Assembly (NCBI RefSeq): GCF_902713615.1
Contig: NC_052153.1
Location: 9,683,569 to 9,747,568, forward strand
Length of the DNA stretch: 64,000 nt
Direction of reading: 5' to 3'
Origin: Scyliorhinus canicula
Lineage: Eukaryota
The translations under genes and the position numbers were made by a program. Below the pieces are notes generated by a model. That model saw nothing but the letters and a program-made list of their open reading frames with translations, was not told the DNA's origin and did not search any database. Numbering within the stretch: the stretch's first letter is position 1; each line of letters begins with the position of its first letter. Positions 9,138 to 33,129 of this stretch are shown here, in pieces.

Positions 9138-9171
<34 letters not shown>

Positions 9172-9228
9172 CTCCGCAGGTACAATATTTCTAGTTTGGT
9201 GGGGAGAGTGAAAGCTGATCTGGCAAGG

Positions 9229-9830
9229 GCAGCAGAGCAGAGCTACTGATCAGCTGTTCTGGGGAAATTTGCATACGTGCAGTGCGGTCAGCCTAAGTTG
9301 AAGGTGAATCTGCGAAGGGGACCCGAGGAGTTTGAGTGAAGGCAATCATCCAGCAGAGGGCAGCAGAGCAGAGCTACTGATCAGCTGTTCTGGGGAAATT
9401 TGCATACGTGCAGTGCGGTCAGCCTAAGTTGAAGGTGAATCTGCGAAGGGGACCCGAGGAGTTTGAGTGAAGGCAATCATCCAGCAGAGGGCAGCAGAGC
9501 AGAGCTACTGATCAGCTGTTCTGGGGAAATTTGCATACGTGCAGTGCGGTCAGCCTAAGTTGAAGGTGAATCTGCGAAGGGGACCCGAGGAGTTTGAGTG
9601 AAGGCAATCATCCAGCAGAGGGCAGCAGAGCAGAGCTACTGATCAGCTGTTCTGGGGAAATTTGCATACGTGCAGTGCGGTCAGCCTAAGTTGAAGGTGA
9701 ATCTGCGAAGGGGACCCGAGGAGTTTGAGTGAAGGCAATCATCCAGCAGAGGGCAGCAGAGCAGAGCTACTGATCAGCTGTTCTGGGGAAATTTGCATAC
9801 GTGCAGTGCGGTCAGCCTAAGTTGAAGGTG
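9229..9830 (+). repeat. Tandem array of 131-bp monomers (4.6 copies) in the CR1 5' UTR
   Basis: Apparently identical units starting at 9229, 9360, 9491, 9622, 9753. Confidence 0.97.
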
Positions 9831-10078
9831 GTTTGTGGAGAGGCTGTTGGCAAGTGACAGTTAAACCTGAAACACTTCGTGAGTGTTTCCCACCCTACCT
9901 CCTCCTCTAACCAACCCCCCCACCCCACGGTGGTTGGGAAGCGGGAGCAGGGGCCTGTCGTGAAGGTGAGTGAGTGCCTTTAATTTGCTTACCTTTGAGC
10001 GGGAGCAGGGTTTGAGGTAATATCAGGTAAGCTCTTCCTTTCTTTTTCTTTTTCTTGTTATTTTTAAATCTAGAGGTG

Positions 10079-11005
10079 ATGTCAGGGAAGGCAGTACAAT
10101 GCTCCTCCTGCAGAATGTTTGAGGTGAGGGACGCCGTCAGTGTCCCTGCTGATTTCATCTGTGGGAAGTGCACCCAACTCCAGCTCCTCAAAAACCGTGT
10201 TAGGGACCTGGAGCTTGAGCTGGATGAACTTCGGATCATTCGGGAGGCAGAGGGGGTCATAGATAGGAGCTTCAGGGAAATAGTTACACCAAAGACTGGA
10301 GATAGATGGGTAACTGTAAGAGGGACTGGGAAGAAGCAGTCAGTGCAGGGACCCCCTGCGGTCGTTCCCCTGAGTAACAAGTATACCGTTTTGGATACTT
10401 GTGGGGGGGACGACTTACCAGGGGTAAGCCATGGGGTACGGGCCTCTGGCACGGAGTCTGTCCCTGTTGCTCAGAAGGGAAGGGGGGAAAGGAGTAGAAC
10501 ATTAGTAATTGGGGACTCAATAGTCAGGGGCACAGATAGGAGATTTTGTGGGAGCGACAGAGACTCACGTTTGGTATGTTGCCTCCCAGGTGCAAGGGTA
10601 CGTGATGTCTCGGATCGTGTTTTCCGGGTCCTTAAGGGGGAGGGGGAGCAGCCCCAAGTCGTAGTCCACATTGGCACTAACGACATAGGTAGGAAAGGGG
10701 ACAAGGATGTCAGGCAGGCCTTTAGGGAGCTAGGATGGAAGCTCAGAGCGAGAACAAACAGAGTTGTTATCTCTGGGTTGTTGCCCGTGCCACGTGATAG
10801 TGAGATGAGGAATAGGGAGAGAGAGCAATTAAACACGTGGCTACAGGGATGGTGCAGGCGGGAGGGATTCAGATTTCTGGATAACTGGGGCTCTTTCTGG
10901 GGAAGGTGGGACCTCTATAGACAGGATGGTCTACATCTGAACCTGAGGGGCACCAATATCCTGGGGGGGAGATTTGTTAGTGCTCTTTGGGGGGGTTTAA
11001 ACTAA
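10079..11005 (+). CDS. CR1 ORF1p: zinc finger, leucine zipper, SGNH esterase (308 aa)
   Basis: CSSC...CGKC, heptad leucines, GDS (VIGDSIVRG), GxND (HIGTND), DxxH (DGLH); first ATG at 10079. Confidence 0.93.
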   Translation: MSGKAVQCSSCRMFEVRDAVSVPADFICGKCTQLQLLKNRVRDLELELDELRIIREAEGVIDRSFREIVTPKTGDRWVTVRGTGKKQSVQGPPAVVPLSNKYTVLDTCGGDDLPGVSHGVRASGTESVPVAQKGRGERSRTLVIGDSIVRGTDRRFCGSDRDSRLVCCLPGARVRDVSDRVFRVLKGEGEQPQVVVHIGTNDIGRKGDKDVRQAFRELGWKLRARTNRVVISGLLPVPRDSEMRNREREQLNTWLQGWCRREGFRFLDNWGSFWGRWDLYRQDGLHLNLRGTNILGGRFVSALWGGLN

Positions 11006-13887
11006 TTCAGCAGGGGCATGGGAACCTGGATTGTAGTTTTAGGGTACGGGAGATTGAGAGTATAGAGGTCAGGAGCACAGATTTGACTTCGCAGGAGGGT
11101 GCCAGTGTTCAGGTAGGTGGTTTGAAGTGTGTCTACTTCAATGCCAGGAGTATACGAAATAAGGTAGGGGAACTGGCAGCATGGGTTGGTACCTGGGACT
11201 TCGATGTTGTGGCCATTTCAGAGACATGGATAGAGCAGGGACAGGAATGGTTGTTGCAGGTTCCGGGGTTTAGGTGTTTTAGTAAGTTCAGAGAAGGGGG
11301 CAAAAGAGGGGGAGGTGTGGCGCTGCTAGTCAAGGACAGTATTACGGTGGCGGAAAGGATGCTAGATGGGGACTCTTCTTCTGAGGTAGTATGGGCTGAG
11401 GTTAGAACAGGAAAGGAGAGGTCACCCTGTTGGGAGTTTTCTATAGGCCACCTAATAGTTCTAGGGATGTAGAGGAAGGATGGCGAAGATGATTCTGGAA
11501 AAGAGCGAAAGTAACAGGGTAGTTGTTATGGGAGACTTTAACTTTCCAAACATTGACTGGAAAAGATATAGTTCGAGTACATTAGATGGGTCATTCTTTG
11601 TACAATGTGTGCAGGAGGGTTTCCTGACACAATATGTTGACAGGCCAACAAGAGGCGAGGCCACATTGGATTTGGTTTTGGGTAATGAACCAGGCCAGGT
11701 GTTAGATCTGGAGGTAGGTGAGCACTTTGGAAACAGTGACCACAATTCGGTGACCTTTACGTTAGTGATGGAAAGGGATAAGTATACCCCGCAGGGCAAG
11801 AGTTATAGCTGGGGGAAGGGCAATTATGATGCCATTAGACATGACTTAGGATGTGTTGGTTGGAGAAGTAGGCTGCAAGGGTTGGGCACACTGGATATGT
11901 GGAGTTTGTTCAAGGAACAGCTATTGCATGTTCTTGATAAGTACGTACCAGTCAGGCAGGGAGGAAGGGGTCGAGCGAGGGAACCGTGGTTTACCAAAGA
12001 AGTGGAATCTCTTGTTAAGAGGAAGAAGGAGGCCTATGTAAAGATGAGGCGTGAAGTTTCTGTTGGGGCGCTTGATATTTACAAGGAAGCGAGGAAGGAT
12101 CTAAAGAGAGAGCTGAGACGAGCAAGGAGGGGACATGAGAAGTCTTTGGCAGGTAGGATCAAGGAAAACCCAAAGCTTTCTATAGGTATGTCAGGAATAA
12201 AAGAATGACTAGGGTAAGAGTAGGGCCAGTCAAGGACAGTGGTGGGAAGTTGTGTGTGGAGGCTGAGGAGATAAGCGAGATACTAAATGAATACTTTTCG
12301 TCAGTATTCACTCAAGAAAAAGATAATATTGTGGAGGAGAATGCTGAGACCCAGGCTATTAGAATAGATGGCATTGAGGTGCGTAGGGAAGAAGTGTTGG
12401 CAATTCTGGACAAGGTGAAAATAGATAAGTCCCCGGGGCCGGATGGGATTTATCCTAGGATTCTCTGGGAAGCCAGGGAAGAGATTGCTGAGCCTTTGGC
12501 TTTGATTTTTAGGTCATCATTGGCTACAGGAATAGTGCCAGAGGACTGGAGGATAGCAAATGTGGTCCCTTTGTTCAAGAAGGGGAGTAGAGATAACCCC
12601 GGTAACTATAGGCCGGTGAGCCTAACGTCTGTGGTGGGTAAAGTCTTGGAGAGGATTATAAAAGATACGATTTATAATCATCTAGATAGGAATAATATGA
12701 TTAGGGACAGTCAGCATGGTTTTGTGAAGGGTAGGTCATGCCTCACAAACCTTATCGAGTTCTTTGAGAAGGTGACTGAACAGGTAGACGAGGGTAGAGC
12801 AGTTGATGTGGTGTATATGGATTTCAGTAAAGCGTTTGATAAGGTTCCCCACGGTCGTCTATTGCAGAAAATACGGAGGCTGGGGATTGAGGGTGATTTA
12901 GAGATGTGGATCAGAAATTGGCTAGTTGAAAGAAGACAGAGAGTGGTAGTTGATGGGAAATGTTCAGAATGGAGTTCAGTTACGAGTGGCGTACCACAAG
13001 GATCTGTTCTGGGGCCGTTGCTGTTTGTCATTTTTATAAATGACCTAGAGGAGGGCGCAGAAGGATGGGTGAGTAAATTTGCAGACGACACTAAAGTCGG
13101 TGGAGTTGTAGACAGTGCGGAAGGATGTTGCAGGTTACAGAGGGACATAGATAGGCTGCAGAGCTGGGCTGAGAGGTGGCAAATGGAGTTTAATGTGGAG
13201 AAGTGTGAGGTGATTCACTTTGGAAAGAATAACAGAAATGCGGAATATTTGGCTAATGGTAAAATTCTTGGTAGTGTGGATGAGCAGAGGGATCTCGGTG
13301 TCCATGTACATAGATCCCTGAAAGTTGCCACCCAGGTTGATAGGGTTGTGAAGAAGGCGTATGGTGTGTTGGCCTTTATTGGTAGAGGGATTGAGTTCCG
13401 GAGCCATGAGGTCATGTTGCAGTTGTACAAAACTCTAGTACGGCCGCATTTGGAGTATTGCGTACAGTTCTGGTCGCCTCATTATAGGAAGGACGTGGAA
13501 GCTTTGGAACGGGTGCAGAGGAGATTTACCAGGATGTTGCCAGGTATGGAGGGAAAATCTTATGAGGAAAGGCTGATGGACTTGAGGTTGTTTTCGTTAG
13601 AGAGAAGAAGGTTAAGAGGTGACTTAATAGAGGCATACAAAATGATCAGAGGGTTAGATAGGGTGGACAGCGAGAGCCTTCTCCCGCGGATGGAGGTGGC
13701 TAGCACGAGGGGACATAGCCTTAAATTGAGGGGTAATAGATATAGGACAGAGGTCAGAGGTGGGTTTTTTACGCAAAGAGTGGTGAGGCCGTGGAATGCC
13801 CTACCTGCAACAGTAGTGAACATGCCAACATTGAGGGCATTTAAAAATTTATTGGATAAGCATATGGATGATAAGGGCATAGTGTAG
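10987..13887 (+). CDS. CR1 ORF2p: APE endonuclease and reverse transcriptase, split by three 1-nt deletions
   Basis: FNARS, SETW, FYRPP, GDFN, SDHN endonuclease motifs; YRPVSL, QHGF, DFSKAFD, GVPQGSVLGP, FADD RT motifs; shifts near 11406, 11476, 12172. Confidence 0.93.
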
Positions 13888-14896
13888 GTTAGATGGCCTT
13901 TAGATTTTTTCCATGTCGGTGCAACATCGAGGGCCGAAGGGCCTGTACTGCACTGTATCGTTCTATGTTCTATGTTCTAAGGTGGGATGGTCTCCTTCTG
14001 TCACTGGCGGGTTGGTACAGACGGTTAAAATGAATGTGTTGCTGCGATTTCTGTTTATTTTTCAATGCCTACCGATTTTCCTGCCAAAGGCTTTTTTCAG
14101 AGAGATTGAGGGAAGGATTACTTCGTTCATACGGGGAGGGAAGATGGCCAGAGTTAGAAGGGTGCTCCTACAGAGGGGAAGGCAGGCAGGGGGTTTGGGT
14201 CTTCCGGACCTGATGTATTACTACTGGATGGCAAATGTGGAGAAGGTGCGGAGCTGGGAGAGAGGGGTTGATTCCCAGTGGGTCAGGATGGAGGAAAGTT
14301 TGTGCAGGGGGTGGGGATTGAAAGCACTAGCAACAGCGCTGCTCCAGATAGCTCCGGGGAAATACTCAGGGAGTCCGGTAATAATAGCTTCATTGAGAAT
14401 TTGGAGGCAGTTTCGCCAACACTTCAGATTGGGGGCAGGGTCAAGGGAAATGCTGATTCAAGGGAACCACAGATTTGAGCCAGGGAGGTGGGATGGAAAT
14501 TTTCGGAAATAGGAGGAGAAGGGGATTAAGACACTAAAAGATTTGTTTCTTAGCGGTCGGTTTGCAGGTCTGAAGGAGCTGGAAGTGAAGTATGGGCTGG
14601 AGCAGGGGGAAATGTTTAGGTACATACATGTTCGAGATTTTGCCAGAAAGGAGATACAGAGCTTCCCAGTGGAGCCAGCTTCCACATTGCTGGAGGAGGT
14701 GCTGACGACAGAGAGACTGGAAAAGGGGGGTAGTGTCAGCCATTTACGGAGCTATTTTGGAAGAGGACAAGGCACCACTGGAAGGGATCAAAGCAAAGTG
14801 GGAGAGAAGAGTTGGGAGGGGATATGGAGGGGGAATTCTGGTGTGAGGTGCTCCAGAGTAAATGCCTCCACCTCGTGCGCAAGGTTGGGGCTGATA

Positions 14897-15412
14897 AAGA
14901 GGCCGGTGTGCTGGCCTTTGCGTCCCTAGTAGCCCGGCGAAGGATCTTGCTACAATGGAAGGATGCGAGGCCCCCAAGCGTGGAGACCTGGATCAATGAC
15001 ATGGCGGGTTTCATTAAGCTAGAGAAGATCAAATTCGCCCTGAGAGGGTCGGTACAAGGGTTCTTTAGGCGGTGGCAACCTTTTCTCGACTTTCTGGCTC
15101 AACGATAGGGTACGGGGACAGTAGCAGCAGCAACCCGGGGGGGTGGGGGGGGGGAAGGGGGAGGGAAAAGGTGTGTGTGTGTGTGTGGGGGGGGGGGGCG
15201 GCGGACGATGACTATGTTTGTTTATTTAATTTAAATTTATTTTTAAGTTCTTCTGTTGTTCATTGGGGTTGGGGGGGGTGGGGGATGGGATACATGCGTC
15301 GATACGGTCTGGGGGTGATAGTTATTATGGGTTATTTTGTTGCATTTCATTGTTTGTCGTTAAGTTTTATATTTTCTGTAAAAAATTCCAATAAAAATTA
15401 TATTTTAAAAAA
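14897..15412 (+). mobile_element. L1-like 3' fragment nested in the L1-like host
   Basis: LAFASLVARRRILLQWK...LEKIKF...WQPF; AATAAA and poly(A); 16-bp TSD AAGGTTGGGGCTGATA at 14881-14896 and 15413-15428. Confidence 0.88.
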
Positions 15413-16277
15413 AAGGTTGGGGCTGATACAGCTGAAGGTGGTATACGGAGCATACCTCACGAGGGAAAGGATGAGCCAATTCTTTGAAGGAGTAGAAGAT
15501 GTGCGAGCGTTGCACGGGGGGAACACCCCGCTAATCACGTTTATATGTTTTGGTCCTGTCCAAAGCTAGAGGATTACTGGAGGGGGTTTTTAGGGTAATT
15601 TCTAAAGTGATGCACGTGAAACTGGACCCGGGTCCCCGGGAGGCCATATTCGGGGTGTCGGACCAGCCAGAGTTGGAAATGGGTGTGGAGGCAGATATCG
15701 TAGCCTTCGCCTCGTTGATCGCCCAAAGGCGGATCCTGATGGGTTGGAGATCAGCCTCTCCACCCTGTGCCCTGGCGTGGTGGGGGGACCAGATGGAATT
15801 CTTGACTCTTGAGAAGGTGAAGTTTGAACTGAGGGGAAGGATGGAGGGGTTCTTCAATTCAGGGGCATTATTCATCATGCACTTTCAAGAACTGGATAAC
15901 ATCGAACATTAGTTTGGGGGGGGGGGGGGGTGTTAATGGTGACTATGGGTGATTCCTGAATCCTTTTGTTTGGGGTTTGGTGGGAGGATGAGATCGTTGT
16001 TATTGATATGGGGATTGACATATTTGTTACTGATTATTGTTTATTGTTGGTGGGTGTAAATTTGGGAGAAAATGTGAAAAAGGAGAATAAAAAATATTTT
16101 AAAAAAAGAATATAGATTGTTGCAATGTTTATCACTGCAATTAAAAATTCCAAAATTAGCAATGCACACCTACTTATTCTAAAGTTCACCAATATATTTC
16201 AGGCGGTTTTTAAAAAGGTTGATGCCAGCGAGTGACTTTGTTAAAAGACATTTCAAGTTGGGAAAGATCAAACTTAC

Positions 16278-30639: not shown

Positions 30640-31589
30640 CTAACAGCGAGGAACAAAAGAAAGTTAACGTCAATGAAAGTTTCAGCATAAAAACACTTTC
30701 AGTATTATATTGCGATCTGATGTAATAGCAGTGTTCAAATAGCATCTAAAATTTACTCAAGTCAGTCAACGGATCGTGGTTTTCCTGAACCCCTTGATCT
30801 CTCACGGTCGATGCTAGTTAGTGACCAGTGACAGTACCTGATACAGCTCGGCCCTCATCACTGACCCCCACCCCGCAGTCTCACTGACCCAGGGCAAACA
30901 CTACCCCACCTCAATGACCCGGGACAGCTTCTTCCCTCACCAACCTCAAACGACACTACCCCCAAGTGGCCTTTTGTAAAATTAATTTATGGGAAGTGGG
31001 CATCGCTGGTTAAGCCAGCATTTATTGCTCATCCTAGTTGCCCTTCAGGTGTGGTGAGTTGGCTTCTTGAACCGCTACAGTCCGATGTGTAGATACACCC
31101 AATGTGCTGTTAGGGAGAGAGCTCCAGAATTTTACCCCAGCGACAGCAAAGGAACAACGATATATTTCCAAGTCAAGGTGGTGAGTGACTTGGCGGGGAA
31201 CCTCCAAGTGGTGGGTTCCCAGATATCTGCTGCTCTTGTCCTTCTGGATGGTAGCGGTCATAGGTTTGGAAGGTGCTGCCAAAGGACCCTTGGTGAGTTC
31301 CTGCAGTGCATCTTGTAGATGATACACATGACTGCCACTGGTCCTCGGCGGTGAGGGTTTGAATGTTTGTGGAAGGAGGAGCAATGAAGTGGATTCGCAG
31401 AGGAAACATCCCACAATCACGAACAGACACAGCAGATCCCACACAACTACTCTCACCTTGACCCATCTCTGCCACCCCTCCCAGTGCCGCCCCACCTTCC
31501 CACCACGGCTCAGACCACTGCCACCCCCATCCCCTCACCCCGATTCTGTCCAAACCCCAACCCCATCTCTCCCTCTCCATCCCCCTCCC

Positions 31590-32953
31590 CCCCACATCTC
31601 CCTCTTCTTCCCCCCCATTATCACCCTTTCTCTCTCCCCCCTCCCATTATCACCCTTTCTCTCTCCCCCTCCCCTCATCACCCTTTCTCTCTCCCCCTCC
31701 CCTCCCATTATCACCCTTTCTCTCTCCCCCCATCAATCACTCCCCCCCATCACTCTCTCTCTCCCCCATCACTCTCCCTCTCCCCCCCCCATCACTCTCC
31801 CTCTCCCCCCCCATCACTCTCCCTCTCCCCCCCATCACTCTCCCTCTCCCCCCCATCACTCTCCCTCTCCCCCCCCATCACTCTCCCTCTCCCCCCATCA
31901 CTCGCCTCTCCCCCCATCCCCTCTCCCCAGCCTCCCTCCCGCCCCCCAGCACTCCCTCTCCACCCCCATCCTCTCCCTCTCCCTCCCCATCACTCTCCCC
32001 TCCTCCCCCCCCATCCTCTCCCTCTCCCCCCCCCATCACTCCTCCCTCTCCCCCCCCCCATCACTCTCCTCTCCCCCCCCCAATCTCCCTCTCCACTCCC
32101 CCCCCATCACCCTCCCTCTCCCCCCCAGCACCCCCTCTCCCCCACCCCATCACTCGCCCTCTCTCCCCCCACATCACTCTCCCTCGCCCCACCCATCACT
32201 CTCCCTCTCCCCCCCCATCACTCTGCCCCCCCCATCACGCTCCCCTCCCCCCCCATCACTCTCCCCCCTCCCCCCCCCTCACTCTCCCTCCCCCCCCCCC
32301 CATCACTCTCCTCTCCCCCCCCCATCACTCTCCCTCTCCCCCCATCACTCTCCCTCCCCCCCCATCACTCTCCCTCTTCCCCCCCATCCCCCTCCCTCTC
32401 CCCCCCCTCACTCTCCCTCTTCGTCCCCCCCCCCCCCCCATCACTCTCCCTCTCCCCCCACCCATCACTCTCCCCTCTCCCCCCCCCATCACTCTCCCTC
32501 TCCTCTCCCCCATCACTCTCCCTCTCCTCTCCCCCCATCACTCTCCCTCCCCCCCCCCATTACTCTCCCTCTCCCCCCCATCACTCTCCCTCCCCCCCCC
32601 CCATCACTCTCCCTCGCCCCCCCCCCCATCAAGCTCCCCCCCCCCCCAGCACTTCCCTCTCCCCCCCATACTCTCTCCTCTCCCCATCCCCAAACCCATC
32701 ACTCTTCCCTCTCCCCCCCATCACTCTCCCTCTCCCCCCCATCACTCTCCCTCTCTCCCCGTCACTCTCCCTCTCCTCCCCCCCCATCACTCTCCCTCCT
32801 CCTCCCCCCCCATCACTCTCCCTCTTCCCCCCCCATCACTCTCCCTCTTCCCCCCCCCCCCATCACTCTCCCTCTTCCCCCCCCCCCCCCATCACTCTCC
32901 CCTCCCCCCCCCCCCCCCCCCATCACTCTCCCTCTCCCTCCCCCCCCCCCCCA
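31590..32953. repeat. C/T-rich minisatellite, variable (CCCCCATCACTCTCCCTCT)n
   Basis: Dozens of CATCACTCTCCC cores separated by C runs; abuts the SMC2 exon 1 donor. Confidence 0.95.
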
Positions 32954-32961
32954 TATCGGAC

Positions 32962-33129
32962 CTGGGACAGGTTACTGATGCCCAGCAGAAAGCAGATGGA
33001 GTCCAGGATGTTGGATTTGCCGCTGCCGTTGAGGCCGGTAATGGCGTTGAAGAGCGGGTCGAAGCCGTTAATCTCCGTCCTCTGCGCGTACGACTTGAAG
33101 CCGTCGATGATGATGGATCTGATGTACAT
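32962..33129 (-). CDS. SMC2: SMC2 coding exon 1 (N-terminal ATPase head, Walker A)
   Basis: [56 protein letters not shown]; 168 nt; GT donor at 32961-32960. Confidence 0.97.

Follow-up and report, generated by a model that had tools for sequence, protein, structure and literature searches.

ORF2 of the non-LTR retrotransposon described here is probably translated by programmed −1 frameshifting on the slippery heptamer U_UUA_AAC at the end of ORF1, which would yield a 1,270-aa fusion of esterase, endonuclease and reverse transcriptase (RT). As judged from sequence comparison, this fusion would likely accompany a more abundant 308-aa ORF1 protein. The element lies in a 64,000-nucleotide stretch of Scyliorhinus canicula DNA (the window), and we take it to be a CR1-type LINE. 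Its features are listed below by position in the window, all on the + strand.

9226..9830, +: tandem repeat of 131 bp, 4.6 copies, 5′ of ORF1, likely within the 5′ region of the element
10079..11005, +: ORF1, 308 aa, ending GGLN-stop, with N-terminal Cys pairs and a coiled segment and a C-terminal SGNH/GDSL esterase
10978..10980, +: TAG shutting the ORF2 (−1) frame 5′ of the slip site
10981..13887, +: ORF2 in the −1 frame, APE-type endonuclease and RT (PF03372, PF14529, PF00078)
10993..10999, +: overlapping heptamer G_GGU_UUA, lineage-specific (5/18 representatives) and not a conserved signal
10996..11002, +: conserved slippery heptamer U_UUA_AAC (18/18 representatives), in phase with ORF1, at which the −1 shift is predicted
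11002..11121, +: open −1-frame linker from the slip site to the endonuclease, AUG-free in the family of the window copy
11003..11005, +: ORF1 stop TAA abutting the heptamer; relatives have TAG or TGA, and in family L101–L110 the stop stands a codon further on
11013..11024, +: G-rich motif GGGG-n-A-W-GGG-R-A, conserved at +11 to +22 past the heptamer, candidate stimulator
13888..13979, +: short 3′ UTR with TTCTATG-type terminal repeats, where similarity among siblings stops

Re-reading of the window sequence reproduced every junction coordinate of an earlier note on this DNA: the in-phase heptamers, ORF2 at −1, the ORF1/ORF2 overlap of 25 nt (10981–11005) and the first ORF2-frame ATG at 11359, which is past the FNARS and SETW motifs and inside the endonuclease. 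The ORF1 esterase matched PF13472 in Pfam (E = 7.9e-15), and its profile matched PDB 4C1B (E = 3.8e-40). CR1-clade elements end in short tandem repeats without poly(A), and three features of this clade were present, namely an ORF1 that combines a Cys motif with an SGNH esterase, an APE endonuclease and RT in ORF2, and a repeat 3′ end. In the window copy, single-base gaps at three places (following 11405, 11475 and 12171) interrupt ORF2; it was intact in 13 of 15 fetched siblings, and all 13 terminated in TTCTATG-type repeats. The fusion, put at about 1,270 aa in the earlier note, was exactly 1,270 aa in 12 of these 15 siblings, 1,269 aa in one and broken in two. A Pfam search of the element gave no protease domain that could release the enzyme.

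Conservation of the heptamer at the ORF1 end

Since a lone in-phase X_XXY_YYZ heptamer is not rare (four occurred by chance in 959 ORF2 codon positions of one sibling copy), the case for frameshifting depends on conservation. We compared representatives of 18 lineages, 12 from the S. canicula genome and 6 from metagenome contigs, which were retained only where the ORF1 profile aligned through its last column and which, falling into about five deeper groups, are not independent. ORF1 ended in NNT TTA AAC in all 18. The heptamer was invariant at synonymous sites, where free variation had been named beforehand as adverse: in a codon alignment of the 18 representatives with 99 gap-free columns, the third base was invariant only at one Trp codon and the three heptamer codons. 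Seven different residues (G, V, C, T, H, S and A) preceded Leu-Asn (LN), and yet the codon at this place ended in T every time, against 23% for third-position T in the ORF1s of these representatives, where TTA made up 41/387 Leu codons and AAC 81/144 Asn codons. All seven other invariant residues with codon choice used at least two codons. At the protein level, the residue preceding LN was E, K, Q, M or W in only 1/137, a weak test since positions −6 and −7 were similarly depleted.

Of 70 genome copies retrieved with a distant query, 64 carried the exact heptamer, and the junction was identical in 40/40 scored genome matches (10800–11250), excluding a copy-specific indel or assembly error; none carried an indel that brings the AUG at 11018 into the ORF2 frame, the outcome named beforehand as adverse. 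One apparent exception (L111, T TTC AAC) was private to a single copy, its siblings having TTTAAAC in 12 of 14 cases and TTTAAAT in two. In the family L101–L110 the stop was shifted one codon 3′ (TTA AAC TTC TGA) in 10/10 copies, and the heptamer was retained. G_GGU_UUA, proposed earlier as a second signal, was found in only 5/18 representatives and was dropped, also as a main slip site.

Raw RNA reads, sampled at about 1 in 100 from a single run and not assignable to the element's own transcripts, showed neither splice joints nor indels at the heptamer, and molecule ends did not accumulate there. Read depth at 82% likeness was about 1,000 over 10988–11019, compared to about 250–350 beyond 11035 and before 10930, and this peak limited to the junction indicates that divergent families are alike only there.

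The LN ending of other ORF1 proteins, raised in the earlier note, was found in 54/106 ORF1 homologues, with names in sharks, rays, chimaera, frogs, turtle and birds; it was absent from 4C1B-type homologues and from teleost-named homologues, the latter ending in TD. The solved esterase 4C1B aligns only up to position 313 of the 317-position profile, and 13/59 LN ends fall 1 to 13 residues past the profile end, indicating that LN is tied to the end of the ORF and not to the fold. Among wider esterase-ORF1 relatives, some proteins end in QGN and others in SKN; judged from these protein ends, the former would be compatible with G_GGA_AAC and the latter with A_AAA_AAC, and one distant locus carries a single in-frame UGA_CUA. 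For the QGN and SKN relatives, DNA searches gave no match in viral contigs and only two distant prokaryotic matches in a genome collection. A 4C1B-like protein had no match in the S. canicula genome at E = 1e-35, and a protein atlas search returned chordate GDSL clusters only.

The G-rich motif and a possible mechanism of slippage

Slippery heptamers usually need a stimulator. The G-rich motif begins 11 nt past the heptamer, and among 17 representatives G was conserved at +11 to +14 (17/17), +18 (17/17) and +19 and +20 (16/17), as was A at +22 (17/17). Three of these positions are third codon positions, at which G occurred in 17, 17 and 16 of 17, compared to a background of 32%. In L101–L110 the spacing of the motif was fixed relative to the heptamer and not to the moved stop. 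The earlier note had pointed to a CAGG/CCTG stem at 11011–11028 and to four G tracts (11013, 11020, 11042 and 11048), all of which are present in the window copy. The stem was not kept across lineages, and no shared fold was found 3′ of the heptamer in 17 lineages, none of which folded much better than shuffled sequences (z = −1.3 to +1.6, nested folds only). The first two G tracts proved conserved, whereas the four-tract G3 pattern occurred in just 2/17, so neither the hairpin nor a four-tract quadruplex was retained as a conserved stimulator. No long-range pairing partner was shared among nine elements.

In the proposed mechanism, the Leu and Asn tRNAs would slip one base back, from UUA to UUU and from AAC to AAA, and CUA would be the first codon read in the −1 frame after Leu-Asn. 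The majority of ribosomes would terminate at TAA, giving a high ratio of ORF1 protein (ORF1p) to fusion. With less confidence, we suppose that the G-rich motif causes a pause at the mRNA entrance of the ribosome, either by binding a protein or by folding without Watson-Crick pairs, and that slow termination may help; a conserved hairpin or pseudoknot would not be the cause. The cited passages of PMC5009743, a review, place U_UUA_AAC among the heptamers on which mammalian ribosomes shift most readily. A broader proposal is possible but tentative: that what drives the vertebrate CR1 frameshift is a short G-rich motif without structure, to which a host protein or ORF1p binds or which adopts a non-Watson-Crick fold, and that across the wider esterase-ORF1 group the fusion has been retained but one recoding signal exchanged for another (G_GGA_AAC for QGN, A_AAA_AAC for SKN, UGA_CUA at one locus). 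Those parts of the frameshifting literature that we surveyed gave no natural example of such an unstructured G-rich stimulator.

Start codons of ORF2 and alternative routes

The endonuclease was in the −1 frame, stop-free from the heptamer, in all 13 representatives where its motif could be found; the linkers measured 33 to 84 codons. In relatives, the −1 frame opens 3 to 111 nt 5′ of the heptamer (3 nt in three representatives and 6 nt in two). In the distant-query sample the endonuclease was at −1 in 53/65 copies and in frame 0 or +1 in 12/65, which we take to be copy-level indels, only some of them checked. The first Met of ORF2 was codon 127 in 30/30 copies of the window copy's family, and this young family is among the 5/13 representatives with no in-frame AUG before the endonuclease. 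The ATG at 11018 belongs to the ORF1 frame, where it opens 15 codons, and is AAG in other lineages; it was rejected as the start of ORF2. As for naturally fused families, nine copies with a long open frame were inspected and no amplified family was among them (six had gained one base in the G/T run, one had a deletion, and two had in common a lost stop and a longer G run); a search for longer proteins gave three matches and no full fusion, which is weak evidence.

What counts against frameshifting is that a conserved stem, pseudoknot, four-tract quadruplex and long-range partner were all unfound (nested folds in 17 lineages, long-range pairing in nine elements), and that an in-frame AUG near the stop was present in 7/17 representatives. 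These AUGs bear on a different route, in which ribosomes terminate and then resume in the −1 frame at the stop or close to it, using either an AUG (SART1-like UAAUG) or a near-cognate codon (L1-like), to give a free ORF2 protein, with the G motif positioning the restarting subunit. Four related lineages have UAAUG or UGAUG at the stop (L043, L112, L130 and L134), three have an AUG two bases after it (stop-NN-AUG; L057, L059 and L061), and AUU follows the stop in the window copy's family; in the distant-query sample, dominated by one family, the AUG at the stop was found in 43/69 copies. Precedents are SART1, with an overlapping stop-start and a downstream structure (cited passages of PMC5972666), and L1 (those of PMC3894237). 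L1 ORF2 is thought to initiate independently of its AUG, as stated in a passage of PMC5009743, so the missing AUG alone does not exclude reinitiation. We nevertheless regard this route as unlikely, because it does not predict the invariant TTA, AAC and preceding T, the stop-adjacent AUG is missing in 10/17 representatives, and the G motif tracks the heptamer when the stop shifts. In addition, Met makes up 2.1% of ORF2 codons, and some linker AUGs are therefore to be expected.

A combination of the two routes, in which frameshifting is ancestral and the UAAUG lineages additionally make some free ORF2 protein, would fit the retention of the stop-AUG in four sister lineages (70–81% identical over the last 80 ORF1 residues); however, Ile (ATT, ATA) occupies the AUG position in sister groups, which agrees with the linker protein tolerating either Met or Ile, and we consider this combination very unlikely. 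It overlaps the frameshifting explanation. Scarcely credible is a reading in which the conserved letters serve another role (in packaging, as an internal promoter, in splicing that yields a separate ORF2 message, or in transcriptional slippage) and another RNA is the one from which ORF2 is read. In its favour, nucleotide conservation forms an island at the junction, and G tracts are known splicing and protein-binding elements; but the raw RNA reads, with neither joint, end pile-up nor indel at the heptamer, speak against it, and it leaves unexplained both the codon phase and the opening of the −1 frame just 5′ of the heptamer. Programmed −1 frameshifting remains our preferred explanation.

Significance and comparison with known systems

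The translation of LINE ORF2 is described as an open question in the cited part of PMC3894237, and the LINE cases tested so far produce a free ORF2 protein via reinitiation. If frameshifting is true, the enzyme of a major LINE group of sharks, amphibians, reptiles and birds would be born tethered to ORF1p in a Gag-Pol-like manner, models of particle assembly and cis preference would change, the beginning of ORF2 would be set for thousands of annotations, and the junction would offer a compact, naturally occurring cassette for frameshifting, about 30 nt long, whose stimulator is unusual. Frameshifting at the CR1 junction was not found in print in a literature search without primary CR1 papers.

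Retroviral gag-pol and coronavirus IBV sites are of the X_XXY_YYZ type, and the IBV site U_UUA_AAC is the same heptamer as in CR1 (cited passages of PMC5009743). In the viruses as in CR1, the site is in phase where a structural-type ORF1 ends, and it precedes a −1 enzyme ORF with no start codon of its own. Unlike the viral sites, the CR1 site is hosted by a non-LTR retrotransposon, with an unstructured G-rich motif at +11 instead of a conserved 3′ stem-loop or pseudoknot (nested folds computed), and with no Pfam protease domain. In PRRSV, the nsp2 −2/−1 frameshift uses a short C-rich motif with fixed 3′ spacing and no structure, bound by nsp1beta and PCBP, according to the cited text of PMC7618843; the CR1 motif is G-rich and has no known binding protein, so that the likeness is an analogy only.

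Within LINEs, SART1 and mammalian L1 resemble CR1, as far as the cited passages describe them, in having a bicistronic RNA and an ORF2 dependent on ORF1 translation, and SART1 also shares the −1 overlap and a downstream element. SART1 (UAAUG coupling) and L1 (unconventional reinitiation, spacer of 63 nt) yield a free ORF2 protein; in contrast, the window copy's CR1 family lacks the SART1-type adjacent stop/AUG and retains the slippery heptamer. The earlier statement that the LINEs studied use reinitiation holds for these two but has an exception in Dictyostelium TRE5-A and TRE3-A, APE-type non-LTR elements whose ORF2 requires a −1 frameshift according to one sentence of a review figure legend (PMC5911963); these belong to another element group and have another type of ORF1. 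In layout the element presumably resembles vertebrate CR1 LINEs such as chicken CR1 and turtle PsCR1, as well as zebrafish ZfL2-1, which have in common with it the esterase ORF1, the endonuclease and RT in ORF2, and the short terminal repeats.

Anatomy and family of the element

A full-length LINE was found on the + strand within the window; it is presumably a CR1 element, a label based on its anatomy (esterase ORF1, endonuclease-RT ORF2 and repeat tail). Its upstream repeat and first reading frame are as follows.

9226-9830, + strand: perfect 131-bp tandem repeat, 4.6 copies, upstream of ORF1
10079-11005, + strand: ORF1, 308 aa, SGNH/GDSL esterase (domain search)

The ORF1 profile matched the solved LINE esterase 4C1B (E 3.8e-40), and the closest named ORF1 homologues were from sharks. 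Endonuclease and RT domains were assigned to ORF2 by domain search, and the tail is short, with TTCTATG-type repeats. A run of 34 G (9138-9171) also lies upstream of ORF1, and this run and the 131-bp repeat are together reminiscent of monomer-type LINE promoters. Immediately beyond the tail (13980-15900) lie pieces of a second, broken coding region resembling that of a retroelement, and 31000-33000 is very C-rich (GC 0.69, skew -0.93). Compared with a sibling over 3.9 kb, the window copy has 11 mismatches, and its ORF2 bears three single-base gaps. Each gap (11405, 11475 and 12171) is at or next to a short run of A; the copy is otherwise young, and the gaps may be assembly or reverse-transcription slips.

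The 4.2-Gb host genome was searched with 10800-11250, and all 40 matches scored among 473 candidates were identical over this junction region. The first Met in the ORF2 frame was codon 127 in 30 of 30 fetched copies, 25 of which kept the frame open up to the locus end. A 308-aa ORF1 was combined with an open ORF2 in 17 copies. Of the 15 that were extended, 13 carried ORF2 in full, so that the fusion would measure 1,270 aa (12 copies) or 1,269 aa (one), and two broke. With many intact copies and a first Met at codon 127, the young family has therefore spread without an AUG before the endonuclease motifs.

Conservation of the heptamer and the reading frame

The earlier note had placed a slippery heptamer, U_UUA_AAC, at 10996-11002, just before the ORF1 stop and with ORF2 in the -1 frame; its coordinates were all correct when rechecked on the sequence, and its observation of the junction was confirmed. 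ORF1 homologues ended in LN in 54 of 106 cases, and in two protein searches (221 proteins) in 137 of the 163 that extended to the ORF1 end; sharks, rays, frogs and birds are among the sources named. At the DNA level, one real copy was taken per lineage from 11 own-genome lineages found with diverse protein queries, window copy included (WIN, L087, L119, L148, L043, L112, L134, L130, L031, L101 and L107), and seven metagenome-contig lineages (L055, L056, L057, L059, L061, L063 and L064); of 30 contig loci, 22 were excluded as short of the ORF1 end or distant, and L082 was handled apart. NNT TTA AAC stood at the ORF1 end in 18 of 18 representatives, a number that overstates independence, as they cluster in about five deeper groups. 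When the codons were aligned (99 gap-free columns), an invariant third base was seen only at one Trp and the three NNT TTA AAC codons; the other seven invariant residues for which synonymous codons exist all varied in their codons (background use: TTA 41/387, AAC 81/144, third-position T 23%). A less selected sample came from a distant query without an LN end, which matched 121 copies in the genome; of the 70 cut out, 64 had the exact heptamer, five had one mismatch and one had lost the junction. One mismatch traced further was private to its copy.

The endonuclease motif was located in 13 representatives and lay in the -1 frame in all 13; this frame has no stop past the heptamer, over linkers 33 to 84 codons long, and on the 5' side it can open just 3 nt ahead of the heptamer. 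Among 65 single copies, the endonuclease frame was -1 in 53, 0 in six and +1 in six, several of the latter two classes having indels at the G run or linker. Single copies L181-L189 have ORF1 and ORF2 in one frame, mostly because the G/T run has gained a base; an identical frame-joining change is found in L184 and L185, which sit on one contig, 4 Mb from each other.

Downstream motif and routes to ORF2

Programmed -1 frameshifting at the ORF1-ORF2 junction is, in our judgement, the likely route to ORF2. This part of the earlier interpretation was supported, whereas the proposed stimulator had to be revised: neither the CAGG/CCTG stem (11011-11028) nor the last two of four G tracts (11042 and 11048) were conserved among lineages. 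For nested folds of +6 to +75 after the heptamer, z ranged from -1.3 to +1.6 over the 17 lineages, 2 of 17 had a four-tract G3 pattern, and the best long-range partners in nine elements differed in place and were mostly no better than those of shuffled motifs. Conservation is seen instead in GGGG-n-A-W-GGG-R-A (+11 to +22), with G at +11 to +14 in 17/17, including two third-codon positions (background 32%).

Termination-reinitiation at the ORF1 stop, which we regard as unlikely, finds its best evidence in an AUG adjoining that stop in 7 of 17 representatives (UAAUG or UGAUG in L043, L112, L130 and L134, stop-NN-AUG in L057, L059 and L061) and in a UAAUG family that makes up the bulk of the 70-copy sample (43/69). 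The AUG is not conserved across representatives; before the endonuclease it is absent in 5 of 13 and found solely deep in the linker in four. Family L101-L110 has its stop shifted downstream by a codon, but the heptamer-to-G-motif spacing is unchanged, so the motif is measured from the heptamer, which fits frameshifting better than reinitiation. A mixed route, in which frameshifting is joined by reinitiation, is more improbable still. Least probable is that ORF2 is read from a different RNA: in raw reads of RNA run X24 (about 1 in 100 sampled), no joint or indel was listed at the heptamer at 93% likeness (depth ~190-fold over the junction), and at 82% likeness, where depth climbs to ~1,000 over 10988-11019, the 40 of 68 variant rows listed held none inside 10993-11006. 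Since the reads may stem from element copies within host transcripts, these data argue only weakly against splicing or slippage and say nothing on translation. X24 reads of opposite mate orientation piled up ~1,000-fold at 10070-10393 (start of ORF1), perhaps from a host transcript with this piece antisense.

Wider relatives and known systems

Three ORF1 homologues labelled Pseudomonas, Klebsiella and flatworm parasite (P0008, P0184 and P0076) closely resemble vertebrate elements, and host DNA in the records is their probable source. In L082 (1326-1331), one locus of a distant esterase-ORF1 element without LN, ORF1 stops at TGA CTA, which we take to be a readthrough-like context, and an endonuclease-like motif lies beyond in the same frame. 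Among 140 proteins inspected from the cluster representatives matched in a profile search, 117 reached the ORF1 end, and 78 ended in Asn (LN in 59, GN in 10). Gln stood before nine of the ten GN ends and none of the 59 LN ends, as expected if the GN ends represent G_GGA_AAC; two SKN ends could be A_AAA_AAC.

Distant ORF1 relatives by C-terminal end
QGN: P0263, P0265, P0272, P0277, P0280, P0281, P0283, P0293, P0329
SKN: P0285, P0346

Such swapped heptamers would be a lead only, read from the protein ends of mutually related sequences. Both heptamers are listed as very shift-prone in the parts covered of a 2016 review (PMC5009743), which do not mention CR1, ascribe L1 ORF2 translation to AUG-independent initiation, and state that quadruplexes stimulate frameshifting in synthetic constructs, natural use being then unknown. 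No description of CR1 frameshifting was found in the literature searched, including the portions covered of PMC5972666, PMC2881922, PMC11835228, PMC5006619, PMC5911963, PMC7618843 and PMC3894237; an older remark on the overlap is possible. The mechanism would be a known one, not found described for this host group, with an unusual candidate stimulator. Frameshifting in a LINE has precedent, since Dictyostelium TRE5-A and TRE3-A require a -1 frameshift according to a figure legend (PMC5911963), and the G-rich motif finds its closest analogy in PRRSV, whose C-rich motif is bound by protein (portions covered of PMC7618843).
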